Source of the DNA: an uncultured delta proteobacterium
Lineage (GTDB): Bacteria; Desulfobacterota; Binatia; UBA9968
Direction of reading: 5' to 3'
Length of the DNA: 64,000 bases
Assembly (NCBI GenBank): GCA_963771465.1
Contig: CAVYTU010000015.1
Coordinates: 416,001 to 480,000 of the forward strand
The notes beneath the pieces are model-generated. The model ran no database searches. It worked only from the letters and a program-made list of their open reading frames with translations, and had not been told where the DNA came from. Made by a program: the position numbers and the translations under genes. Within the stretch, counting starts at the first letter, position 1, and each line of letters begins with the position of its first letter. Shown here one piece after another: positions 4,614-17,674 of this stretch.

Positions 4614-5279
4614 TCAGTGAACGCGAATTTTCTTCGCCGCCTCGATTCCCAAAGAAAATTGATCGTTAGCGACCTTCAAGGTCATCATGCCGAGCGACGG
4701 CGCGACGTCGACGACATGAACCTTCGCGCCCGGCACCAGTCCATGATCCTGCAAGTAGGCTAACAAGCGCACATCGCGCTCGCCGCCTTCAGTGATCGAA
4801 TCGAGTTCAACGGTTTGATCGTCAGTTGCCTCATCCAATGGAATAGTCTTGGTCGGCGAAGCCTGACTTGCGCCAGGGATCCGATTGCCATGGGGGCAGG
4901 TTAAGGGATGTTTCAGCAGCGTCGCCAAGCGTTCTTCAACTTCTTGCGAGATCGCATGCTCCAAGCGATGCGCTTCTTGATGGGCTTTGACCCAATCGAG
5001 TCCCAACAAATCGGTCAAAAAACGTTCGGTGAGAAAGTGGCGCCGAATAATTCTTTCGGCGATGTTCTTACCTTCACTGGTTAGGTGAATCTCCTTGCGC
5101 CGGTTAATCGTTACGTAGCCATCTTTTTCCAAACGTCGCAAAGTTGCGAAGATGGTTGATGCTGAAACACCGGCCTCGGCGGCCATGCGGGCCGCAATCA
5201 CTGGCTGTGATTCTTCCCCAAGTACGTAAATCGCCTTGAGATAATCCTCTAACGCGTGGGTTACCTTGGGCTCTTCCAT
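4614..5279 (-). CDS. DtxR/MntR-family metal-dependent repressor with C-terminal FeoA/SH3-like domain
   Basis: EDYLKAIY, wHTH, RRHFLTERFL, EAHRLEH and TCPHGNRIP motifs; LQDHGLVPGAKV FeoA-like tail. Confidence 0.93.
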   Translation of the reverse strand: MEEPKVTHALEDYLKAIYVLGEESQPVIAARMAAEAGVSASTIFATLRRLEKDGYVTINRRKEIHLTSEGKNIAERIIRRHFLTERFLTDLLGLDWVKAHQEAHRLEHAISQEVEERLATLLKHPLTCPHGNRIPGASQASPTKTIPLDEATDDQTVELDSITEGGERDVRLLAYLQDHGLVPGAKVHVVDVAPSLGMMTLKVANDQFSLGIEAAKKIRVH

Positions 5280-5283
5280 GGAT

Positions 5284-5315
5284 TTGACAAACTTTTAAGT
5301 TTCGATTATACGAAC
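5284..5315 (+). promoter_or_regulatory. sigma70-type promoter P1 with overlapping palindromic operator; divergent promoter for the repressor gene
   Basis: TTGACA(5284)-N17-TATACG(5307). The dyad TTCG-ATTATA-CGAA (5301-5314) covers the -10 and reads TATAAT on the minus strand. A second dyad GTTTA-AGGTC-TAAAC lies at 5348-5362. Confidence 0.7.
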
Positions 5316-5425
5316 AATTAGTCTTGTGGCACACTAATGATAAATATGTTTAAGGTCTAAACTATTCCCTGCTGGACACCTTATAGTAAATTTGTCGTAG
5401 CAGATCAACCAAGAAAAGAGGTGTT

Positions 5426-6367
5426 ATGAAATCAAAGTTTCAACGGTCACTAACGGGCGCAGTTATGGTTGCAGTCGCGCTGTGGATAACTTCTTACAAG
5501 CAGGCGCTGGCGCAAGAAAAAGTCGTTATCGCAATCCAACCCACGGTGGCCAGCGATGAAATGTTGAGTAAAGCGAAACCGCTGCAAAATTTTCTCGAAA
5601 AAAGCCTTGGCGCTCGCACCAAGGTCGAAATTTACGTCCCAACCAGTTACGCAGCCGTGGTCGAGTCGCTGCGCTTCGGTCACGCTCAGGTCGCTTTCAT
5701 GTCAGCCTGGCCGTCTCAATTGGCGGTACGGCTCGGTGGCGCCGAAGTCGCATTGGCTGAGATTCGCCAAGTGCTGCACGGCAAGGAAAAAGTCGAGGCG
5801 CCTTACTACTATTCCAATTGGGTCGTAGCGCCGGACTCGCCGTACAAGGATCTTCAATCGCTCAAAGGTAAGAGCGCCTGCTTTCCCAGCCCAATCTCTA
5901 CTTCCGGTTTCGTTGCGCCGATGGGACGCATGGTCGAGCTAAACCTGCTCCCGGCGGCGGACGGCAAGGAAGCGGATCCTAAAGCATTTTTCAAAGAGGT
6001 GTTGTTCGGCGGCGGCTACGGCCAATGCTGGCAAGCGCTCAAACAAGGCCAAGTCGATACCACCATAATCGCCGGAGACGTCCCGGAGAAACTCTATAAT
6101 GAAGTCCTCGGCGCCACCCGTACCATCGAAACCCAAGGCCCGATCCCGTCTCATGCAGTGGTGCTCAGCAAGGAACTGAAAGACCCGCTACGCTCTCGGG
6201 TGATTCAAAGCATCGGTAAACTGAGCGCGCCTGAGCAGCGCGACCTGATGAAGACTTTTATATCGAGTCTGTTTGTCGGCTTTAAGCCGACCAATGCCAA
6301 CGAGCATCTCGGTGCGTTACAGAAATACTTAAAGCTCGCCAACCTCAAATTCACGGAGCGCTTGTGA
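5426..6367 (+). CDS. phnD: Phosphate/phosphite/phosphonate-family ABC substrate-binding protein
   Basis: Signal peptide (ALA-Q), SYAAVVESLRFG and STSG oxyanion motif; followed by ATPase and permease. Confidence 0.85.
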   Translation: MKSKFQRSLTGAVMVAVALWITSYKQALAQEKVVIAIQPTVASDEMLSKAKPLQNFLEKSLGARTKVEIYVPTSYAAVVESLRFGHAQVAFMSAWPSQLAVRLGGAEVALAEIRQVLHGKEKVEAPYYYSNWVVAPDSPYKDLQSLKGKSACFPSPISTSGFVAPMGRMVELNLLPAADGKEADPKAFFKEVLFGGGYGQCWQALKQGQVDTTIIAGDVPEKLYNEVLGATRTIETQGPIPSHAVVLSKELKDPLRSRVIQSIGKLSAPEQRDLMKTFISSLFVGFKPTNANEHLGALQKYLKLANLKFTERL

Positions 6368-7113
6368 CCGCTAACGGCGATGCGCCGATTGCGCTCAGCG
6401 CCGAGCAAGTCTGGTATTCCTATCCGCATCACGACGCGGTGTTACGAAACGTTTCGCTGTCCATTCCGGCGGGAAAACACACCGTCATCATGGGGCCCTC
6501 GGGCACCGGCAAAACCACCTTGCTGCGGGTTCTCGCGGGCATCTTAAAACCAAGCCGCGGCCGCATCACGGTATTCGACCAGCCGGTTGACGGTCGCGGC
6601 CAGCGCCAGCTGAGTCCGTTGATTGGCTACATTCCACAACAGCTGGGATTGGTGCGTAACCTTTCCGCCCTCGATAACGTTCTAATGGGCGCGTTGGGCC
6701 GGCTCGGCGATACCAAATCGCTTTTGGGTCTGTTCCCTCGGGCTGAAATCGACGCCGCCCACGCGGCGCTGGATATGATGGGCATCGACCACAAGAGCGA
6801 GGCGCAAGTCTTTCACCTAAGCGGCGGCGAACGGCAGCGGGTCGCGATCGCGCGCACGCTGTTGCAACGGCCGCGCATCGTCATCGCCGACGAGTTCGCC
6901 TCCGACCTCGATTTAGCGATGGCCTATGAGATCCTCGACCGCATCCGCAACGCCGCTGAAAGAGAAAACATCACCTTCATCATGAGCATGCACCGTTTCG
7001 GTCTGGCGCGAAGATTCGGCGACGATGTCCTCGCCCTGGAAGATGGCGCCATCGTCCGCGGCTTCATCGGCAACGAAATACTCGAGACCGCCCAAGAGGC
7101 CGCACCTTTGTGA
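6364..7113 (+). CDS. phnC: PhnC-like ABC ATPase
   Basis: Walker A GPSGTGKT, LSGGERQRVAIAR, IADE..SDLD and NVLMGALG motifs. Confidence 0.88.
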   Translation: MTANGDAPIALSAEQVWYSYPHHDAVLRNVSLSIPAGKHTVIMGPSGTGKTTLLRVLAGILKPSRGRITVFDQPVDGRGQRQLSPLIGYIPQQLGLVRNLSALDNVLMGALGRLGDTKSLLGLFPRAEIDAAHAALDMMGIDHKSEAQVFHLSGGERQRVAIARTLLQRPRIVIADEFASDLDLAMAYEILDRIRNAAERENITFIMSMHRFGLARRFGDDVLALEDGAIVRGFIGNEILETAQEAAPL

Positions 7114-7877
7114 TATCCAAGCTTTTCTTGCCGATAACCACAGCGTTATTTTTGCTCGCGGTGCTCGCCCACTTGGGGTTTTTCGAGTGGGACCGGTTGG
7201 CGCGCGGGTTTCGCAATTTAAGAATTCTCGGCGCCGAGATGGTGCCGCCGGATGTCTCGATCTTGCCAACGGCGGGGGCGGCGCTGTGGGAAACCGTCGA
7301 GATGTCTTTCGCCGGAACGCTGCTCGGCTTCATGGCGTCGCTGCCGCTCAGCATTCTCGCCACCCGTCGCTTATTTTCCGACTGGGTGTCGCGGCTAGCG
7401 CGCTTCGTCGCCGCCGGCATTCGCACCATCCCGGTGCTGCTGTGGGCAATCGTCTTTGTCATTCTCGTCGGCCTCGGCCCATTGGCCGGCACCTTCGGTA
7501 TTGCCGCCTACACGGTCGGTTACTTGGCGAAAATCTACGCCGATCTCTTCGAAGGCACCGACCCCGAAATCATGGAAGCCGTACAAAGCACCGGCGCTTC
7601 GAAGTTGCAGTTGGTGCGTTACGTGATCGTTCCTGAAACCGCCAATGCGATACTGGCGCAAGTGCTATTTATGCTCGAATACAACATCCGCGCCTCATCG
7701 ATTCTCGGCTTCGTCGGCGCCGGCGGCCTCGGCTTGGTCATTCAAATCTATTTGCAGAATCTGAATTATCGCCGTTTGGCCACGGTGCTGTTACTGGTTT
7801 TGGTGATCGTTCTGCTCATGGACGGCATGAGCGCGTGGCTGCGAAAAAGGTTTCTGTTGTCAAGCCAGGGAACCTAA
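7110..7877 (+). CDS. phnE: PhnE-like ABC permease
   Basis: RTIPVLLWAIVFV...GLGPLAG and EYNIRASSILGFVGAGGLG motifs. Confidence 0.88.
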   Translation: MISKLFLPITTALFLLAVLAHLGFFEWDRLARGFRNLRILGAEMVPPDVSILPTAGAALWETVEMSFAGTLLGFMASLPLSILATRRLFSDWVSRLARFVAAGIRTIPVLLWAIVFVILVGLGPLAGTFGIAAYTVGYLAKIYADLFEGTDPEIMEAVQSTGASKLQLVRYVIVPETANAILAQVLFMLEYNIRASSILGFVGAGGLGLVIQIYLQNLNYRRLATVLLLVLVIVLLMDGMSAWLRKRFLLSSQGT

Positions 7878-7885
7878 TCAGCGTC

Positions 7886-9868
7886 ATGAGTCGACAATTT
7901 TCCCTGCCGTTCATTGGCAAAAACCGCTTCGGCAATTTTCTCTGTTTGCCGATACTTCTATTCGTCTTCATCGCCAGCCCGGCCTTCGGCCAAGAGCAAG
8001 CCAAGAAACTCATCGCCCTGCTCGATTATCTCGGCAGCGACTACAAGAACGCCGTCATGGACGGCAAGGTCCTAAGCCAAGACGAATACACCGAGATGCA
8101 GGAATTTTCCAAACGCATCTCAGAGCTATCCGCGCAGTTAAAAGAACTGGACAAGGGTGACAAGGCCGGTATCGACGCCGAGATAAAATCGCTGACGGCC
8201 CAGGTCGATCAGAAAGCCGATCCGAAGGTCATCGCCGACCTGGCCAAAAGCATCAAAGATAAACTGCTCGCGGCATACCAAATCGTACCCTATCCGCGCC
8301 GGCTGCCGACGCTGGCAGACGGCAAGAAACTGTACGATGACAATTGTGCCCAGTGTCACGGCGCCACGGGTAAAGGCGACGGTCCCGGGCGCCAATCGAT
8401 GAATCCGAAAACCCCACTGCCGGCAAACTTTACCGACCCAGAACGGATCGGAGGCCTGTCGCCGTTCAAGGCTTTCAATACCACCAGCTTCGGCATCGAA
8501 GGCACAGCGATGGCTTCCTTCGCGGCTCTTAGTGAAGAACAGCGCTGGCAGGTATCTTTTTATGTTCTTACTCTGCGGTTTTCGCCCGACGCCGCAAAAG
8601 ATGGAGCAGCGCTATTTCGATCGAAGAAGGTGGCCGGAGAATTCACCACGGTTGCGCTGTTAGCGACCCATTCCGACGAGCAGTTGCTCGAAAAACTCAA
8701 ACCCTACGCGAGCCAAGAAGCCGAGGCGTTAAAGCTTTTGGCCTATCTACGCCGCGGTGTTCTGGAAACGAAGACCCAAGACCCGCTCTTGATTGCGCGC
8801 GGGCTGATCCGCGAGGCGGTGGAACTCTACGGCAAAGGCGACAAAGAGAAAGCTTATCAGAAAGCGGTGGAAGCTTATCTCGATGGATTCGAGCTCGCCG
8901 AGCCGGCGCTGTTCGCCAAGGATGCGTCGTTCGGCCGTGCGCTGGAGGGGCAATTCACCCAACTGCGCAACGCCATCAAACAGGGCGAAGCTGCCGACGC
9001 GATCGGGAAACGCCAGCGCGAGATCGAAGCGAAGCTCGACGAGGCGACGCAAATGCTTGCCCGTGAGGACAACTTCTCCACCTATTATGCGTTTATCAAT
9101 TCAGCGCTGATTATTCTTCGAGAAGGCCTCGAGGCAACGCTCATCTTAGCGGCAATACTAGCGATGCTGAAAGTGATGGACGCCCGCGCCGCCATTCGCT
9201 ACATCCATTTGGGCTGGATTTTGGCCCTAGTGATGGGTGGGCTGACGTGGCTAGCAACCCAGACTATTTTGACGCTGAGCGGTCAGCACCGCGAGAGCAT
9301 GGAAGGATTCATTTCGATTTTCGCGGCGGTGGCGCTGTTCTACGTCGGCTATTGGCTACATACCCGCTCTGAGGCCAAAAGATGGCAGGCATTCATACAA
9401 GACAAGGTCAAGAACAGTCTTTCGAGCAAAAGCATTTTCGGTTTGATGGGGATTTCGTTTTTCGCCGTCTATCGTGAGGCTTTTGAAGTCGTGCTCTTTT
9501 ACCAAGCGCTCTGGCTCCAGAACGAGAACAGCCATCAGGCGGTTTTGTGGGGTTTCGTAGCCGGGCTCGCGACCCTAGTCGCCGCGACCTTCGGCATCTT
9601 GAAACTAGGGCTCAAGGTTCCGCTGAAATATTTCTTCGGCGCCACCGGGACGTTGCTCTACATCGTCGCGTTCGTTTTTGCCGGCAACGGCATCAAGGAA
9701 CTCCAAGCGGCGGGTTGGGTACCGACGACGCCGCTCAATTTTCCGCTGCAAGCGCCGCTGTTGGGTATCCATCCGACGGTAGAAAGCCTGGCCGCCCAAG
9801 GAATCATGCTCGGCGCATTCATTATTACGTCCATCTGGATGGTGCGTGAACGGAGGAAGGCGGGATAA
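7886..9868 (+). CDS. Cytochrome c / FTR1 iron permease fusion (PbrT-like)
   Basis: LLDYLGSDY N-terminal domain, CAQCH heme motif, REGLE and REAFE FTR1 motifs, multiple TM helices. Confidence 0.92.
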   Translation: MSRQFSLPFIGKNRFGNFLCLPILLFVFIASPAFGQEQAKKLIALLDYLGSDYKNAVMDGKVLSQDEYTEMQEFSKRISELSAQLKELDKGDKAGIDAEIKSLTAQVDQKADPKVIADLAKSIKDKLLAAYQIVPYPRRLPTLADGKKLYDDNCAQCHGATGKGDGPGRQSMNPKTPLPANFTDPERIGGLSPFKAFNTTSFGIEGTAMASFAALSEEQRWQVSFYVLTLRFSPDAAKDGAALFRSKKVAGEFTTVALLATHSDEQLLEKLKPYASQEAEALKLLAYLRRGVLETKTQDPLLIARGLIREAVELYGKGDKEKAYQKAVEAYLDGFELAEPALFAKDASFGRALEGQFTQLRNAIKQGEAADAIGKRQREIEAKLDEATQMLAREDNFSTYYAFINSALIILREGLEATLILAAILAMLKVMDARAAIRYIHLGWILALVMGGLTWLATQTILTLSGQHRESMEGFISIFAAVALFYVGYWLHTRSEAKRWQAFIQDKVKNSLSSKSIFGLMGISFFAVYREAFEVVLFYQALWLQNENSHQAVLWGFVAGLATLVAATFGILKLGLKVPLKYFFGATGTLLYIVAFVFAGNGIKELQAAGWVPTTPLNFPLQAPLLGIHPTVESLAAQGIMLGAFIITSIWMVRERRKAG

Positions 9869-10096
9869 ATGCCAAAGCGCGAGCAACGGACGGAAGGCGA
9901 GCCCGTTACAACGGTGATTCGCGACAAGAATTCGCTTCGCTGCGACTGCGGTAATCTTTTAGCCCGTCTCGTTCCTGGCGGTGTGGAGCTTAAATGTCGC
10001 CGCTGTAAACGCCAGGTCGTGATTCCGCTATCGGGCGGCAGCAACTTCGCAGAAAACCATCTCAACCGTTGGGAAAGGGCGACTGATAAATCTTAA
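9869..10096 (+). CDS. Mu Com-like zinc-ribbon small protein
   Basis: LRCDCGNLLAR...VELKCRRCKR (CxC-x15-CxxC) follows the RC..C..LL...EI.C.RCKR pattern of phage Mu Com; its ATG abuts the FTR1 stop codon. Confidence 0.75.
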   Translation: MPKREQRTEGEPVTTVIRDKNSLRCDCGNLLARLVPGGVELKCRRCKRQVVIPLSGGSNFAENHLNRWERATDKS

Positions 10097-10158
10097 TTGG
10101 TCATCATTCTAGCATCTTAGACTCTTAAATTCGTATGTGATAATTTATTTTGTTAGTG

Positions 10159-10190
10159 TTGACAAATATTCAATATTTAAATATACGAAC
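10159..10190 (+). promoter_or_regulatory. sigma70-type promoter P2 of the exbB operon
   Basis: TTGACA(10159)-N17-TATACG(10182)AAC in an AT-rich island; same architecture as P1. An inverted half-site TTCGTAT lies at 10130. Confidence 0.72.
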
Positions 10191-10193
10191 TTA

Positions 10194-10268
10194 GTCAGCG
10201 GCCAGCGGTCTTGAATCCAGAGCCCGGCGCACCGTCCATAGTGGGCGGCGCTCAGGGCTCTTTATTTT
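10194..10268 (+). promoter_or_regulatory. Structured 5' leader: tandem degenerate repeats plus terminator-like hairpin (putative attenuator)
   Basis: Repeats AGCGGCC-AGCGGTC-TTGAATCC-AGAGCCC; stem AGAGCCC/GGGCTCT, GGCG/CGCT, CCGTCCA/TGGGCGG, followed by TTATTTT; lies between P2 and exbB. Confidence 0.68.
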
Positions 10269-10319
10269 ATGGAGGTTCAGAATGTCCGCAGAGTTCAAGA
10301 AAGGTTTGGTTCTATAGTC

Positions 10320-10928
10320 ATGACCCAGGTTGTTTCCATCATTATCAAAGGCGGGATCGTCATGATCCCGCTGCTCGCTTGCTCCTTGATCTCCCTGGCG
10401 CTCACCATCGAGCGCATCATGTTTTGGACCAAACTGAAGTCCAAAGAGGTGCTCAGTCAAATTCTAACACTAGTAGAAAACGGTGAATTCGAGCAGGCGC
10501 TAAAGTTAGGAAAATCATCCGGACAGCCCATCGCGCGAGTTTTGTCTGCCGGCATCGCCCACCGCAATCCCGCGCCGGCCAAGGCGATGGAAGCCGCCGC
10601 CCAGGCAGAGATCCCCGTGCTCAAAAGCCGCCTCGGCATTCTCGATACCATCGTTACGCTTGCCCCTCTGCTCGGATTGCTCGGCACGGTAGTAGGCATG
10701 ATCGGTTCCTTCGACGTGATGTCCGAAGCGGGCCTGGGGCAACCGCATGCCGTTACCGGCGGTGTTGCCGAAGCGCTCATCGCAACCGCCACCGGATTGC
10801 TGATCGCGATTCTGACCTTAATCGCCTACAACTTTTTCACGGCTCGGGCCGAACGGGAGATGGATCAAATGGAACACTTCAGCTCATCGCTGGAGCTGCT
10901 GCTGCAGGAACATGTGGGGAAACATTGA
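10320..10928 (+). CDS. exbB: MotA/TolQ/ExbB proton channel
   Basis: KGGIVMIPL, APLLGLLGTVVGMI and GGVAEALIATATGL motifs. Confidence 0.93.
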   Translation: MTQVVSIIIKGGIVMIPLLACSLISLALTIERIMFWTKLKSKEVLSQILTLVENGEFEQALKLGKSSGQPIARVLSAGIAHRNPAPAKAMEAAAQAEIPVLKSRLGILDTIVTLAPLLGLLGTVVGMIGSFDVMSEAGLGQPHAVTGGVAEALIATATGLLIAILTLIAYNFFTARAEREMDQMEHFSSSLELLLQEHVGKH

Positions 10929-11340
10929 TGCGCATCCAACGCCGCAGCTCGAAGAAGGCGCGCATCGAGATCATCCCGATGATCGACACGATTTTTTTCT
11001 TTGGTCTTTTTTATGATTTCGACTTTATCGATGTCTCAATTCAAAGGCGTGCCGGTTAATCTGCCCAAAGCGGCATCCGGCCAACAAGCCCCAGCCGAAA
11101 GCGCCGCGGTATCGATCACCAGAGAAGCGCAGATTTTTCTCGACAAACAGGCGGTCGATAAATCGGCATTGAACGATTTGCTGCGCCAAAAAATTGCCAA
11201 GAACCCCGATCTCCTAGTGGTCATCAACGCCGACGACGGCGTCGAGCACGGGCGCGTTGTTGAAATCATGGATGTCGCCCGCAGACGCCAACGTGGCCAA
11301 ACTTGCGATTGCCGTAAAGCCAAGGGAGCCAAAGCGATGA
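10928..11340 (+). CDS. exbD: ExbD (two apparent frameshifts, near 11000 and 11285)
   Basis: ARIEIIPMIDTIFF / LVFFMIST..VNLPKA..INADDGVEHGRVVEIMD / ANVAKLAIAVKP are spread over three frames; the first break is in a T-run. Confidence 0.87.
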
Positions 11341-12170
11341 ACCATCAGTGGCTCGTGTCGTCATTTACCGTCTCATCGTTGATTCACTTGAGCCTGATTC
11401 CACTGGCAGCGCTGATCATGCACACAAAGCCGCTCAAGCCGATCACAGTTCCCATCGAACTGGTTGACGTTCCTAACATCGAGCAACCCGAGAAAGTCGT
11501 GGTCGCGCCGCTGCCTTCGGCGCCAAATCCCCAGCGGAAAAATATTTCCGCGCCCAAATTACTATCCAAGCCGGTATTGGAAAAAAGTTTCGTAGCGCCG
11601 ACGGGCAACACTAAGGACGAAGTTAAACCAGAGAAACCGCGCGAAGAAACCCCGCAGCTTGCATCATTGCCGGACAAGGCCGGCGACAGCAACGCCGGCT
11701 GGAATGCCGGCAGTCGTGTCGCAGAGGCTGAAGGCAGCGCCGCCGGCGCAGGCAGTCTCTTCGGTAACGGCGATGTCGGGGTCGTTGGCGGCAGCGGCGT
11801 CGAAGGCGGTGGCGGCGGAAAAGGGTCAGCTGGATTGGGTAGAGGTATTAAAGGTGACGGCACCGGCGGAGGCGTTGGCGGCGGAGAAGCACTCTCGGGC
11901 ATGGCTCGGCCACTCGGTGGCTATCAAGTCAAGCCGCGCTATCCGGAGTCGGCCAAGCGAGCTGGTGCTCAAGGCGTAACAACGCTACGCGTGCGCGTGC
12001 TTGAGAACGGTCGGGTTGGCGATGTGCTTGTCGAACAGTCCGCCGGTTTTCGCGATCTTGATTTCGCCGCAGTGGATGCGGTCAAGAAGTGGCTCTTCGA
12101 ACCGGCGCGGCGCGGTAAGGACGCAGTGTCGGTCTGGGTGATGCTGCCGGTGAAGTTCGAGCTACACTAG
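11337..12170 (+). CDS. tonB: Energy transducer TonB
   Basis: TM anchor SSLIH, Pro/Lys then Gly-rich linker, C-terminal PRYPESAKR...SAGFRDLD...KWLFEPA; ATGA overlap with the exbD stop. Confidence 0.9.
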   Translation: MNHQWLVSSFTVSSLIHLSLIPLAALIMHTKPLKPITVPIELVDVPNIEQPEKVVVAPLPSAPNPQRKNISAPKLLSKPVLEKSFVAPTGNTKDEVKPEKPREETPQLASLPDKAGDSNAGWNAGSRVAEAEGSAAGAGSLFGNGDVGVVGGSGVEGGGGGKGSAGLGRGIKGDGTGGGVGGGEALSGMARPLGGYQVKPRYPESAKRAGAQGVTTLRVRVLENGRVGDVLVEQSAGFRDLDFAAVDAVKKWLFEPARRGKDAVSVWVMLPVKFELH

Positions 12171-12178
12171 GAAATCCA

Positions 12179-12370
12179 ATGGGACAAACGCTTGTGAATC
12201 ACACGGCTAAACGATCGACCACTGCGGCTGTAGCCGCATCCAACGGAAAAAAGCCGCGCATCGAAAGCAATCATCTTTTTCAAGGCGGTAGCGAGATCGT
12301 CATCGTGCACCAAAACGAGGAGTACAACTTGCGCATCACCAGAAACGGCAAACTAATCTTGACGAAATAA
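12179..12370 (+). CDS. hemP: Hemin uptake protein HemP/HmuP
   Basis: SNHLFQGGSEIVIVHQNEEYNLRITRNGKLILTK C-terminal signature. Confidence 0.93.
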   Translation: MGQTLVNHTAKRSTTAAVAASNGKKPRIESNHLFQGGSEIVIVHQNEEYNLRITRNGKLILTK

Positions 12371-12381
12371 TTTTAATCAAA

Positions 12382-12456
12382 CCAGCCAGCCAGCATATGA
12401 GCCGACTCATGCCAGCCAGCGAAAACATTAGCTCCCTTGGAGGAACGCATGAGTCG
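12382..12456 (+). promoter_or_regulatory. CCAG-repeat RNA element with alternative hairpins over the receptor's RBS and start codon
   Basis: CCAGCCAGCCAGC - ATGAG.CCGA.CTCAT - CCAGCCAGC; CGACTCATGC (12403-12412) is the exact reverse complement of GCATGAGTCG (12447-12456), which contains the ATG. Confidence 0.72.
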
Positions 12457-14596
12457 ACAACAGAAACGCGCGGATGAAAGAAAACGGCACAAGACAGCTT
12501 TGCAAAAAATCTGTCTTGCGGCGGGCGAAGGCGTCGGCCGGGCGGTAGCTTTTTCTTTCGCACTAGCCAGCAACGCTTTCGCCGCGGAGCCGAAGAAAGA
12601 AGAGACGTTCGACCTGCCGCCGGTGGTGGTGGAAGACCAGGGCAACTCCTACGTTGTGCCCGAATCCTCTCTATCCAAGTTCCCGGTACCGCTGAAAGAC
12701 ACCCCGCAATCGATCACTATCGTGCCGGAGAAACTCATCCAAGAACAAGCCGGCACAACATTACGCGATGCGCTGCGCAACGTGCCTGGAATTACCGCCA
12801 CAGCCGGCGAAGGCGGCGGTGCTCAAGGTGATGTTTTCATCCTGCGCGGGTTCAACGCACGCAACGATATGTTCATCGATGGCGTGCGTGATTCCGGCTC
12901 CTATTTTCGTGATTCTTTTAACTTCGATGCAGTCGAAGTATTAAAGGGACCTTCGTCGACTTTCTTTGGCCGCGGCTCTACCGGCGGCATTATCAACCAG
13001 GTCAGCAAAGGTCTCCGCCTCGACCCCAGTTACAACGGTATTTTCAGCGGCGGAGCCGGCCCGCTCTTCCGCGGCACTGTCGATGTCAACCAACCGCTCT
13101 CGCAAGTGCTGCCCAACGCCGCCCTCCGTATCAATCTCATGGCGCACGGTGATGATGTCGTGGGACGTGACAAGATCGAACTCAGAAGGCAGGGTTTTGC
13201 GCCGTCGATCGCCTTCGGTCTCGGAACGCCGACACAGATTACTTTGAGCTACCTGCTCCAACACGAAGACAATATTCCGGATTACGGTTTTCCTTACATA
13301 AATGGCGCGCCACTGCGCACCGATCGCGACACCTTTTATGGGTTGACCAAAGAGGATCATGAAAAGACGTTGGTAAACGTCGGTACGCTCCGGTTGGATC
13401 ACCGCTTCAATGACATATTCAACCTGCGGAACACGCTGCGGTACAGCCACGTTGACCGGGATTCGGCGGTAACTAACGCTACCGTCGTTCTTCCCAACAC
13501 GATTACCCGAAGCCGGCCTCAACGCGACACTCAGGAAAGCATTCTCAGCAACCAAACGGATCTAACCGCCAAGTTTGACACGTTTGGCTTCAAACATACT
13601 GCTACCACGGGCCTCGAAGTATCTCGCGAAACTTTCGATCTCGTACGCTGGGCGAGTACCGGACCTAATACAACCATAAACCATCCCAACAACAACGCAT
13701 TACCGAACCCGAAGGTGCTAGCTGCAGATTCCGACACGCGCGCTATCGGCTTTGGCTACTTTGCCGCGGATCAGATCAAGTTGAATCAATATTTTGACAT
13801 CGTCGGCGGCGTCCGCTGGGACTACTTCGATACCGACGTCAAGGATGACTTCCTTGATGACAGGCGAAAACAGGTCGACAAGGCGTGGAGTTATCGAGGC
13901 GGATTGGTTTTCCATCCTACGCCATCCCAAAGTTATTATTTCTCCTACGGCACTTCGTTCAACCCTTCCGCCGAAGGCATTGCGCTGAGCCCCGCCACCA
14001 ACGGCACGCCCCCGGAAAAGAATCGGATTTTTGAAGTCGGCGCAAAGATCGAATTCTTCGAAGGCGCGCTCAATCTTCAGAGTGCGGTATTCCGAATCGA
14101 TAAGACCAACGCACGCACGCCAAACCCGCTTGACGATACCTTGCCGAACGTAGTGACGGGTAAACAGCGTTCGCAGGGCTTCGAAATTGGCGCAACGGGC
14201 CGTGTGCTTCCCGGATTGAATGTATTCGGCGGATATACGTTCCTCGATACAGAAATTCTCAAAGATACCGTCACCGCTAATATTGGAAACGAAATCCAAA
14301 ACGTTCCCAAACACAGCGCGACCCTTTGGACCACCTACGACTTCCTCGAGAAATGGCAGGTCGGCGGTGGCCCGACATACGTCGGCAGTCGCTACTCGAA
14401 CAATGCCAACGCCAACCGAGTGCCTGGTTTCGTCCGTTGGGATTCGACGGTCGCCTATCAGATCACAAAAAATATTCAGCTGCGGGTCAACGCGATCAAT
14501 CTCACGAACCAGCTCTATTTCGATAGCATCTCTGGATCGAAAGCCGTGCCGGCTGCCGGGCGCACGATTCTCGGCAGCGCGAGTTTCAACTTCTAG
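12449..14596 (+). CDS. TonB-dependent siderophore receptor (Fiu/PiuA-like)
   Basis: SD GGAGG at 12439; TonB box [43 protein letters not shown], terminal Phe. Confidence 0.94.
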
Positions 14597-14610
14597 GGAT
14601 TTTTACAAGA

Positions 14611-15291
14611 ATGATCGTCCAGGTTCCCAATGTGCTTAACTCTGACCAGATCGCGCGCTGCCGCGAAGTGATGAATCGCGCGAGCTGGGTCGACGGCCGG
14701 GTCACCGCTGGGTATCAGTCGGCCGTGGTAAAGGACAATCGCCAGTTGTCGGAGAATAGTCCGGAGGCGCGGGAGCTCGGCGACATCGTTGTGGCGGCCC
14801 TCGAGCGCAGCCCACTGTTTATTACAGCGGCCTTGCCGCTGCGGGTCTTTCCGCCGCTGTTCAATCGCTATGAAGGCGGCGAAAAGTTCGGCGCGCATCT
14901 GGATAATTCGATTCGGCAGATCCCCGGCACGTCCTATCGCATTCGTACCGACATCTCGGCGACGCTGTTTCTCAGCGCGCCGGAAGACTACGACGGTGGC
15001 GAGTTGGTGATCGACGACGTTTACGGCGCCCACGCCGCAAAGCTTCCCGCCGGCGACATGGTCGTCTACCCGGCGAGCAGCCTGCACCATGTGAACCCGG
15101 TGACCCGCGGCGTACGCCTCGCATCGTTTTTCTGGGCACAGAGCATGGTGCGCGACGACGGTCAAAGAACATTGCTCTTCGATCTCGATATGGCGATCAA
15201 TAAGGTCAATCAGACGATACCTCATCACGGCGCCGTCGTGGAGCTGACGAACTGTTATCACAATTTGCTGCGGCGTTTTGCCGAGGTGTGA
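14611..15291 (+). CDS. piuC: PKHD-type Fe(II)/2-oxoglutarate dioxygenase (PiuC/YbiX)
   Basis: [35 protein letters not shown] and [12 protein letters not shown] motifs. Confidence 0.93.
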
Positions 15292-15823
15292 CCTGAATCT
15301 GCGATTGAAAATAATCTCGGTAGTTGGCCCCTTGCTGGTTGCCGGCTGCACCACCACCGCGCCGTTGGATCAATCGCCTTCGCGCGTTTCCGTCGCCTTC
15401 ATCGAACCGGAGAAGTTCACCGACGCGCGCCGCGCTGAATTGGAGCCGACTTCTTCGGGAGTTCTGCGCGAGCTGGAAAAATTTCTGATCGAGGCCGGCG
15501 CGCGCTACGTGCCCGAAAACATGCAACTGAACATCCGGATTACCAACGTCGATCTGGCCGGCGACTTCGAATTGTTTCGCGGTCCACAAGCGGAACAAGT
15601 GCGCATAAACAAAGGTCTCTACCCGCCACGCATCGCGCTTGAGTTCGAGGTCGTCGATAGCGCGATGAAGGTGATTAAAACCGGCAAACGCGACATCACC
15701 GACATCAATTACCAATTACGCAGCGTTTACCCGAGAGAAGACTACGTGAGATACGAAAAAGACATCTTGCGCGACTGGCTGCGCGCGGAATTTGGCGAGC
15801 TTAAGAGCCGCATCGCAGGTTAA
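15278..15823 (+). CDS. DUF3016-like lipoprotein
   Basis: Lipobox LVAGC; [19 protein letters not shown] and RYEK..LRDW motifs. Confidence 0.75.
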
Positions 15824-15845
15824 ACCGAGACGGAGAATGCCGACC

Positions 15846-17674
15846 ATGAAACTGCTGCACAAAATAATCTTCTGGAGCCACCTGCTCGCCGGCGTGGTCG
15901 GCGGTTTGGTGATTTTCATCATGTCGTTCACCGGCGTAATCCTGATGTACGAAGCGCAGATCACGGAATTTATCGAGCGCGACACGCGGCGAGTGATTCC
16001 GTCCACCGACGGCAAGCGTTTGGGTTACGACGAGTTGATCGCTAAAGTGCGCGCCGCGAATCCTAAGGCGCGCCCGGCAATGATCATGGTGAAGGCCGAT
16101 CCAGCTGCCTCGGTGGCGGTCAATCTGGGCCGCGAGAATACTGTTTTCGTAAATCCCTACAACGGCGAGTTTTTGGGAGGTCAGTCAGCCACTTACAATT
16201 TCATGCGCGGCGTCGTCGATTGGCACCGCTGGCTTGGCACCGAAGGAGAAGGCCGCGCCACCGCTCGTGCGATTACCGGCGCATGCAATTTGGCGTTTTT
16301 CTGGCTCGCCGTTACCGGAGTCTACCTTTGGTGGCCGCGCAGCTGGCAATGGCGCGGATTGAAAATGAGCCTGCTGTTCAGCCCTCGCTTGCGCGGCAAA
16401 GCGCGCGACTGGAACTGGCACAACGTCATCGGATTTTGGTCTTCATCGGTGCTGGTCGTGCTCACGCTGACGGCCGCAGTCATGTCTTATCCGTGGGCAA
16501 ATGATTTGTTGTATACGCTTACGGGCAGCGAACCGCCGCGCCGGTCCGAAGGGCCCGGCGGGCTCTCGTTGCTCAGGAAGCGCGGGCACGCGATCAACGC
16601 GGCGAAGCGCGCGCGGCCGCCTCAGCCGCGAGCTTCGATGTTTTATTGACGCGCGCACAAGAGCAGGTCCCCGGTTGGGAGATGATCATGTTGCGCTTAC
16701 CACCGCGCGGCGATGGACCGGTCACCGTTTCGATCCAGGGGCCCGATGCCTTTCATCGTTTCGAGCGCTCACAACTCACGCTCAATCGCACCACCGGAGA
16801 CGTGGTGAAATGGGAACCCTATGCCAACAACAGCACAGGGCGAAAATTGCGCACTTGGGTGCGCGCGCTTCATACCGGCGAAGCGTTTGGATTTATCGGC
16901 CAGACCGTCGCCGGACTCGCTTCTCTCGGCGGTTGTTTTCTCGTCTGGACCGGGTTGGCCATGGCCTGGCGCCGCTTTCGTTCTTGGCGCCGCACACCGA
17001 AAGAATTTACTGTTGAGGAGTCAGTGATGAATGCAAATACCGATCAAATCAATTTTCCCAATCCACATCAGCCCGAGACCGAAAGCGTTGATGGCGGACT
17101 CGCATACTCATTGAGCGAAGCCCAAACCGTCGCGCCCAACGGTGCCAACGGTCACGCCCGCGCGGTGCAGGATCTCGCGCGCGAGCGAGCGACGGCGCCG
17201 TTCAACGGCGAGTCGGTGTTGATTCTTTACGGCACCGTCACCGGCAACTCCGAGGCGCTCGCCAAGAAATTGGCCAACGCACTGCGCCCGACCGGACTCA
17301 CTGCACGTGTTAGCGATATGGCTCACTGTCAACCGGACGTACTCAAGCAAGCGAACTGCGTCCTGGTCGTGGCGAGCACCTACGGCGACGGCGAACCGCC
17401 CGACGACGCAGCGCCGTTTTGGCAAGCCATCGTGCAAGGCAACGGCCTAGATTTGACCGGCGTAAAATATTCCGTACTGGCACTCGGCAACACCACCTAT
17501 GATCACTTCTGCAAGTGCGGCCGTGACTTCGATGCCGCCCTTGAGCGCCACGGCGCCATCCGAATCTATCCGCGCGTCGATTGCGACGTGGATTACGATG
17601 ACCAAGCCGGACGCTGGATCGAGGGCGTGCTCGCCACGTTGCGGCAGGAGCAGAACCATTCCGCATCGGCGTAA
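15846..17674 (+). CDS. PepSY-associated TM-helix protein (PiuB-like) with C-terminal flavodoxin domain; frameshift(s) near 16560-16650
   Basis: FWSHLLAG, SFTG, WHRWL, TGVYLWWP, WHNVIG in the first frame; LHTGE, WTG, then YGTVTGNSE, STYGDGEPPD, ALGNTTYDHFC in the second. Confidence 0.85.

Follow-up and report, generated by a model that had tools for sequence, protein, structure and literature searches.

Protein-mediated attenuation and antitermination leaders include TRAP/trp, PyrR, HutP and BglG/SacY-RAT, and a post-transcriptional layer on iron uptake and storage is represented by the Fur-controlled small RNAs RyhB and PrrF and by the eukaryotic iron regulatory protein/iron-responsive element (IRP/IRE) system. 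The Com protein of phage Mu has, to our knowledge, so far been regarded as a phage oddity whose single target is mom or a methyltransferase. Here, we analyzed a stretch of 64,000 nucleotides (nt) from an uncultured delta proteobacterium of the Binatia (contig CAVYTU010000015.1, positions 416,001 to 480,000 of the forward strand), referred to below as the window, in which a gene for a 75-amino acid (aa) Com-like protein is followed by a conserved leader RNA element ahead of exbB. Position, phyletic pattern, and orientation all link the Com-like gene to the fixed RNA element, and the recurrence of this pair in several phyla points to an undescribed RNA-level control of metal uptake.

The RNA specificity of Com is described in PMC6483171, of which a part was available. 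According to that part, systematic evolution of ligands by exponential enrichment (SELEX) with a Com zinc finger selected GAG(N)2CC as the core, mostly in bipartite form; CC(N)2-3GAG is bound by Com when it lies in a hairpin loop, an accessible single-stranded GA is required, and binding to duplex RNA is weak; and the Mu site, GAAUGCCUGCGAGCAUCCCACGGAG, adjoins the translation-inhibition structure of mom. All known com homologues belong to Mu-like prophages and immediately precede the gene under their control, as far as the accessible part of PMC3299994 tells. In the literature searched, subscription journals aside, we found no account of chromosomal Com-like regulators in metal loci or of the RNA motif described below.

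Linkage of the Com-like Gene and the RNA Element

The Com-like gene of the window (9869..10096, + strand) encodes a putative RNA-binding regulator with a Cys4 zinc ribbon and is followed on the same strand by a bipartite conserved RNA core (10197..10225), which corresponds to invariant columns in alignments A1 and A2 and scores 77.6 bits with the covariance model R1. A DNA search of 40 relatives showed the leader segment 10195-10229 to be 85-94% identical in genomes of the same genus, and the flanking com coding DNA to be about 73-75% identical. The consensus reads AGCGGCCAGMGRUCnnGAAYCCAGAGCCC, then a covarying hairpin, then a U-run; in 18 aligned copies AG(C/A)GGCCAG(A/C)G(G/A)UC-nn-GAA(U/C)CCAGAGCCC is nearly invariant and a U-run follows the hairpin, the interior of which is different in each copy. 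A covariance model built from these 18 copies matches 20 of 31 genomes of the genus. Within the order, the element occurs in 53 of 123 genomes, all in one family (f1 52/89, f2 0/5, f3 0/28), with up to four copies per genome clustered within about 12 kb; the window's own genome holds one copy, and no extra copies were found in it. The counts on leader conservation, genus and order distribution, and co-occurrence include the unpublished genomes G005, G082, and G085, the first of which gives one row of A1 and A2 and hence of R1 (loci L010 and L036); leaving out all three shifts each count by at most 3 and leaves the conclusions unchanged.

A hairpin is present in all 43 full-length copies (11-20 bp, median 16 bp, median -25.8 kcal/mol), and at least six U are found within the next 9 nt in 37 of them. 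In an alignment that was fitted to the model, and in which 6 of 49 rows are antisense partial matches on the same hairpins, the covariation score was 0.236 versus 0.139 in shuffles (0 of 500 reached 0.236), paired cells made up 95.3% versus 90.1%, and changes on both sides were seen in 28 cells versus 6.2, while sliding the partners left 11-58% of cells paired. The window hairpin has the layout of an intrinsic terminator, i.e., a GC-rich stem with an immediate U-run. The element appears to be a family new to Rfam: no Rfam 15 family was reached in the window, where the best match was Pseudomon-1 with 19.2 bits against a gathering threshold of 50, and none was reached at the element in eight other loci. 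Two further structures within the core were considered and rejected, namely a helix that would pair GRUC with GAAY, in which A and C are never seen together, and a GGCC-triloop-GGYC mini-hairpin, as in both the variation is one-sided and follows orthologous groups. An alternative antiterminator helix was looked for, and none was found.

The com open reading frame (ORF) ends 6-158 nt upstream of the element, on the same strand, in 31 of the 43 full-length copies, and the remaining copies are mostly second or third ones lying a few kb from a com gene. Decayed com remnants carrying a stop or frameshift were noticed beside secondary copies (L054, G043:C103:602-700; L058), which suggests that the module was duplicated as a unit. 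Among 123 genomes, both partners were found in 51, the motif only in 2, com only in 4, and neither in 66, counts that overstate the support because related genomes are not independent and that should be taken as descriptive. The exceptions include a genome of the genus with com and no detected motif (G045:C30:77376-77558) and two genomes with weak motif matches and no com (G008:C9:72076-72143; G118:C350).

A scan of species-representative genomes extended this picture to 156 com relatives and 80 loci from Candidatus Binatia, metagenome-assembled genomes named 'delta proteobacterium', Sorangium, Corallococcus, Myxococcus, Haliangium, Acidobacteriota, Rokubacteria, Syntrophobacteraceae, and others. 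With the covariance model based on the genus only, the element was located just past com in 31 of the 80 loci at E <= 0.01, with 53-55 bits in Myxococcaceae, and weaker matches sit at the same position. The core common to the phyla, GGCC-M-GMG-RYC ... GA-N-YCC-M-GMG-CC, was written as a regular expression post hoc, after the sequences had been viewed, and it is found between -30 and +300 of com at 57 of the 80 loci, with 27 matches elsewhere in 880 kb on both strands. In five of five Myxococcota genomes (6.5-10 Mb), there is exactly one match to the pattern, located beside com, and a reversed control pattern does not occur. A first-pass annotation of this DNA had named as tests the conservation of repeats and hairpin beside homologues of the small protein and the covariation of the hairpin, and both are supported by these comparisons.

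The Com-like Protein and Its Candidate RNA Site

The same annotation had taken the 75-aa protein for a non-phage homologue of Com. Comparison with Mu Com, the sequence of which was taken from record AF083977, revealed detectable homology by BLASTP (32% identity over 53 aa, E 5e-7), and hhalign with a 33-member family alignment gave a probability of 86% (E 4.8e-6) over the zinc ribbon. The PHROG matches were 'gpCom control of modification' (E 8.9e-4) and 'translational regulator' (E 8.6e-3), and many of the 179 homologues collected at E <= 0.01 are named 'phage FluMu protein Com' in their sources. The family core, LRCxCGxLLARLVxGGVELKCRRCKR, is almost invariant. Cysteines C25, C27, C43, and C46 (CxC-x15-CxxC) are invariant in 33 homologues and align with C6, C9, C26, and C29 of Mu Com with a one-residue gap, and the conserved h-E-h-K/R-C-x-R-C-K-R segment aligns with Mu Com as well. 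The homology held in the form of a distant relationship but failed at the Pfam Com model: Mu Com itself matches PF10122 (36.8 bits, E 2.7e-9), and the window protein remains below the gathering threshold. The AlphaFold model, of modest quality (mean predicted local distance difference test score 63, core 66-84) contains three short strands at 30-52 and disordered ends, in agreement with the zinc finger and disordered tail of Com described in the available part of PMC6483171. A sequence search of the PDB returned weak zinc-ribbon look-alikes alone (TRIM56, E 0.067; ribosomal S27e) and no Com structure. Together, the alignments support the assignment of the 75-aa protein as a distant, chromosomal, non-phage relative of Mu Com.

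The core of the RNA element may be the cognate site of this protein. The first-pass annotation described four repeat units, AGCGGCC (10197-10203), AGCGGTC (10204-10210), TTGAATCC (10211-10218), and AGAGCCC (10219-10225), all of which were found on the + strand inside the conserved core 10197-10225, but they are better read as one bipartite core (GGCCAGMGRUC ... GAAYCCAGAGCCC) than as four equal units. Its half-site 1 is GGCCAGCGGUC (10200-10210, +) and its half-site 2 is GAAUCCAGAGCCC (10213-10225, +). A 22-nt core occurs once in the window, with 0 occurrences expected from 100 shuffles. In sequence, the repeats resemble the Com RNA site in the accessible part of PMC6483171: half-site 2 is similar to the start of the Mu site, GAAUGCCUGCGAGCAUCCC, which lies 14-32 nt ahead of the mom start (AF083977). 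At least one CC(N)1-3GAG is present in 46 of 48 unique cores and two are present in 40, versus 11.6% and 2.4% of control 36-mers, although this enrichment is partly circular, as the regular expression that chose the cores already demands C-N-G-N-G. The position of com directly upstream of the follower gene, with the putative RNA site between them, is the same as in the known com arrangement.

Proposed Mechanism and Competing Explanations

The next same-strand start codon follows the element at about 12-99 nt, and its ribosome-binding site often touches the U-run. No promoter would fit between the U-run and the gene behind it, and expression of the downstream gene therefore requires read-through. 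Two promoter classes were distinguished: in class A, the element has its own promoter about 4 nt upstream, and in class B, it lies within the com transcript with no promoter nearby. In the predicted transcripts of both classes, the core starts at about +1 to +5.

The explanation we favor, and hold to be rather probable, is that a chromosomal Com relative and its cognate leader act at the start of the exbB transcript, where binding of the protein would open the terminator and lead to read-through. The site would be a bipartite single-stranded core of two CC-N-G(A/C)G half-sites, the second of which also forms the 5' base of the intrinsic-terminator hairpin. Transcription would begin at about 10193 at a repressor-controlled promoter, or enter from the FTR1-com operon, and without Com it would stop at the U-run 10262-10268. 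Com, as the product of the upstream iron-uptake operon, would bind the core and keep the AGAGCCC arm single-stranded; with the stem beside the U-run blocked, the polymerase would proceed into the remnant ORF (see below), exbB, exbD, tonB, hemP, and the receptor gene. In the window, the leader would be a second gate behind a repressor-type promoter, by which the TonB operon would be coupled to the expression of the upstream FTR1-com operon. The same pair of protein and site is found in other phyla ahead of hairpins that mask the ribosome-binding site, which Com would unmask, following the logic of phage Mu com/mom. In its comparative part, the interpretation given in the first-pass annotation is largely supported, with two further corrections that concern the genes behind the leader and the nature of the inhibitory structure.

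The first correction is that the leader is not specific to the TonB operon, since it is also found ahead of several genes for outer-membrane and metal functions and, in a form that lacks the U-run, ahead of ferritin genes. The followers in the window's family are a conserved 70-aa ORF with exbB, DUF6662, a cupredoxin-domain protein, DUF4198, a di-haem peroxidase, and a porin-like protein with a coiled-coil N-terminus; ferritin follows in four loci (L055, L056, L057, and L061), the copies of which lack a proper U-run. These ferritin-linked copies are located just past a sigma-54-type box, TGGCACG-N4-TGCT, about 30 nt before the motif, and a conserved TTTTCAACAATGACAATTT block is found further upstream. 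Among the 80 loci, the downstream genes include a TonB-dependent receptor (16), a porin-like protein (16), ExbB (9), DUF6662 (5), and cupredoxin (3), and an FTR1 homologue directly adjoins com on its upstream side in 21. The second correction is that the terminator as the inhibitory structure stands for the window's family, whereas in Myxococcota the core is mostly followed by hairpins that include or abut the ribosome-binding site (e.g., L083, CAGAGCCCUUC...GAAGGAGCUCUG-C-AUG), with only a few terminator-like copies (L093, L129).

Two side observations concern the neighbors of the pair. The gene immediately before com is a same-strand Fur-family gene in 9 of the 80 loci, in Acidobacteriota, Myxococcota, and Binatia (L083, L089, L093, L115, L116, L117, L119, L141, and L151; four Pfam-checked). 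The motif is immediately followed by members of two small-protein families of about 100 aa and about 91 aa, neither with a Pfam match, in 5 and 3 of the 80 loci, respectively (L078:3249-3548; L110:3247-3519).

Several observations, in addition to the circularity and the kinship of genomes mentioned above, weigh against the proposed switch. An intact com is missing directly upstream of 12 of the 43 full-length copies, the regular-expression core is missing from 23 of the 80 com loci, and in the phyletic pattern 2 genomes carry the motif without com and 4 carry com without the motif. The first zinc knuckle of the protein is CxC, one residue shorter than the CxxC of Mu; no match to Pfam PF10122 or to any NCBIfam model was obtained even at E <= 1 to 10; and tblastn of 50,697 phage records revealed no Com, the best E of 0.05 belonging to Flavobacterium phages. 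On the RNA side, half-site 1 of the window has GCG in place of GAG, which leaves a single CC(N)1-3GAG, and the spacing is N=1 versus the published 2-3. Termination cannot be the sole output, as the four ferritin-linked copies lack the U-run. A 505-nt contig from an RNA library covers 10046-10550 without mismatch, which means that this library contains molecules that cross the hairpin, a finding in keeping with read-through, although the contig may be contaminating DNA, and such contigs reveal no transcript ends. The RNA data consist of assembled contigs, which carry no ends, strand, or level, and the uncovered stretches in X7, X17, and X20 are uninformative.

Four other explanations were weighed. 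The stem has an invariable base (AGAGCCC / GGGCUCU) and a freely varying interior, as expected for a protein that reads a folded stem, and this would suit a scheme in which the same protein-RNA pair works with the opposite sign: metal-loaded Com would stabilize the folded hairpin base, leading to termination or masking, and would be an RNA-level co-repressor at plentiful metal. The Cys4 fold requires metal, and the metal-uptake loci with adjoining Fur, DtxR, or FTR1 are in line with such a role. We consider it unlikely, as Com prefers single-stranded GA and is weak on duplex RNA in the accessible part of PMC6483171, whereas the GA of half-site 2 is paired within the hairpin; moreover, com is co-transcribed with the uptake genes and is therefore made exactly when uptake is wanted. 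The element could also be a small RNA of about 75 nt, or one derived from a 3' untranslated region, which acts in trans via a 5' seed with Com as its partner or chaperone, the downstream genes being expressed by leak-through. Class A, with its own promoter, conserved unstructured 5' region, and strong terminator, has the layout of a Fur-controlled small RNA, and the weak, sub-threshold Rfam match was to Pseudomon-1/ErsA (19.2 bits, E 1.8). We find this quite unlikely, because a ribosome-binding site and a same-strand gene lie within 12-99 nt, so that the element does not stand as a gene of its own, the Myxococcota and ferritin-linked copies lack a terminator, and the element is single-copy beside com in all five Myxococcota genomes.

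The fixed single orientation relative to com and the next gene is difficult to reconcile with a third possibility, in which the repeats would be an operator at the DNA level, bound by the Com-like protein as a transcription factor acting just past the start site as a roadblock or activator. UniRef does name one homologue 'Com family DNA-binding transcriptional regulator', and the core would occupy about +5 to +33 of the predicted promoter. However, the core continues into an RNA hairpin that contains G-U pairs and compensatory changes, the class B copies are part of the com transcript and have no promoter close by, and the characterized relative binds RNA (PMC6483171, in the part available), all of which makes an operator highly improbable. 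We disfavor most strongly, as having hardly any chance of being right, the view that we are dealing merely with the intrinsic terminator of the FTR1-com operon, conserved upstream by descent and unlinked to the small protein. The hairpin and U-run do come after the last gene of an operon, yet the 29 nt on the 5' side of the terminator stay the same in spite of the divergence of the com coding DNA and of the stem interior, the core recurs in other phyla without a terminator, it is gained and lost together with com, and extra copies are found behind other promoters.

The favored read-through switch also allows a bolder extension, which we offer as a speculation that is unlikely to hold. Com might sense metal by loading or losing Zn or Fe at its Cys4 site and run a post-transcriptional metal regulon in which uptake and storage are switched oppositely. 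The element would then be a conditional terminator before the TonB system, receptors, porin-like proteins, and cupredoxin/FTR1 partners, and a non-terminating 5' leader behind the sigma-54-type ferritin promoters. If true, this would constitute a bacterial counterpart of IRP/IRE based on one 75-aa protein.

The Window Locus and Its Relation to Known Systems

All features named in the first-pass annotation were located in the window sequence where it had placed them. The locus begins with a DtxR/IdeR-type metal-dependent repressor with a FeoA domain (4614..5279, - strand; Pfam Fe_dep_repr_C 5.9e-29, FeoA, Fe_dep_repress), which is transcribed divergently to the uptake operon. The operon itself, on the + strand, comprises ATP-binding cassette (ABC) uptake genes for a phosphonate-type binding protein, an ATPase, and a permease (5426..7877; Pfam Phosphonate-bd 1.5e-38, ABC_tran 9.9e-33, BPD_transp_1 1.1e-19) and a cytochrome c/FTR1 iron permease fusion (7835..9868; Pfam FTR1 2.8e-28, Cytochrom_C 3.1e-13). 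The ATG of the com-like gene (9869) directly follows the TAA of the fusion gene; the 75-aa CxC-x15-CxxC ORF had been noted as the end of this operon. The 15 neighboring ORFs (4614-17671) are metal-uptake genes and not a phage or prophage context, which, with the negative tblastn search of phage records, is consistent with the non-phage setting claimed for the gene.

The sigma-70-like promoter (10159..10187, +), composed of TTGACA (10159-10164), N17, and TATACG (10182-10187), begins 62 nt past the com-like stop codon, with the predicted transcript start at about 10193. The promoter block is kept in class-A relatives, and its absence from the list of a consensus scanner is explained by the requirement of that scanner for T as the last -10 base, which here is G. 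Between the -35 and -10 boxes, there is a perfect 7-1-7 AT-rich palindrome, AAATATT C AATATTT (10164-10178), with AAATAAT T ATTATTT as its counterpart in L007; it looks like a Fur-type operator and may be a repressor site. The terminator-like hairpin (10219-10261, folding to 17 bp and -28.6 kcal/mol), the 5' arm of which, AGAGCCC, is the end of half-site 2, and its U-run UUAUUUU (TTATTTT in the DNA, 10262-10268) together span 10219..10268 on the + strand and were confirmed to precede the first gene.

A Shine-Dalgarno sequence GGAGG (10272-10276) and an 11-codon ORF (10283-10318, MSAEFKKGLVL*) follow on the + strand (10272..10318), the stop of the latter being located 1 nt ahead of the exbB ATG. 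In relatives (L033:1594-1803, L035, L046), a conserved 70-aa ORF (M-Y-G-I-K-S..GRWSVSLCNCSQDTAHFHYGNVVLHI..LKKGLVQ*) without a Pfam family stands between leader and exbB; the window (10269-10320) has lost about 180 nt of it and retains only its ribosome-binding site, start, and last codons. The first full gene after the leader is exbB (10320..10928, +; Pfam MotA_ExbB 1.5e-32), followed by a split exbD, tonB, hemP, and a TonB-dependent receptor (10925..14596, +; Pfam ExbD, TonB_C, hemP, Plug, TonB_dep_Rec_b-barrel). In the split exbD (window 10925-12170), the first piece covers 10925-11059, and the second, which runs from 11001 in a different frame, continues into tonB as a single 389-aa ORF (Pfam ExbD and TonB_C). 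In contigs from other samples, 1 nt is inserted after 10991 and again after 11000 and 1 nt is deleted at 11283, and the split may reflect either assembly indels or genuine frameshifts in the window's genome. Similarly, a PepSY_TM protein (window 15792-17674) is seemingly split at 16646, with profile positions 1-220 in one ORF and 239-295 plus a flavodoxin domain in the next, overlapping ORF, which may be another frameshift.

What appears to be new in this locus is a probable Com-type protein-RNA control in cellular metal uptake, with the terminator as its likely output in this lineage. The Com-like proteins form a chromosomal sister family in Binatia, Myxococcota, Acidobacteriota, and other soil phyla, within Fur, DtxR, FTR1, and TonB loci. 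If the proposed switch is true, bacterial metal homeostasis, where Fur-type repressors and small RNAs predominate, would gain a protein-based RNA switch; an intrinsic terminator would be gated by a zinc ribbon of about 35 residues; and a compact, sequence-defined protein-RNA pair would be at hand for structural work and synthetic control. Rfam would further gain a new RNA family, hundreds of small proteins now called "hypothetical" could be named, and the Corallococcus and Myxococcus copies make the proposal testable in culturable bacteria.

Like RyhB/PrrF and IRP/IRE, the element is associated with both arms of metal handling, as its copies precede uptake genes and ferritin genes, and the promoter contains a Fur-box-like palindrome, as do those of Fur-controlled small RNAs. 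Unlike RyhB and PrrF, the effector would be a protein with a cis site and not a base-pairing RNA, and there is no homology to IRP or IRE. With the TRAP, PyrR, HutP, and BglG type of leader, the proposed switch would share an RNA-binding protein that reads short leader repeats and decides on a terminator before the first gene; it differs in the 35-residue zinc ribbon fold, in having no detected antiterminator helix, and in the regulator gene being immediately upstream in cis. The closest likeness is to Mu Com/mom, with a small protein composed of an N-terminal Cys4 zinc ribbon, here a predicted one, and a disordered tail (PMC6483171, in part), a com gene directly upstream of the controlled gene (PMC3299994, in part), here the putative target, and repeated CC..GAG units beside an inhibitory hairpin. 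The Mu Com homologues known from the Mu-like prophages FluMu, Pnm1, and B3 contrast with the window's gene, which is chromosomal and belongs to a metal-uptake locus. Unlike Mu Com, the protein misses Pfam PF10122 (Zn_ribbon_Com) and has CxC as its first knuckle, and unlike the Mu site, the RNA has a fixed bipartite core of about 29 nt. Finally, where Mu has a translation-inhibition structure, the window's family has a terminator with a U-run, and its genomes carry up to four sites, i.e., a small regulon.

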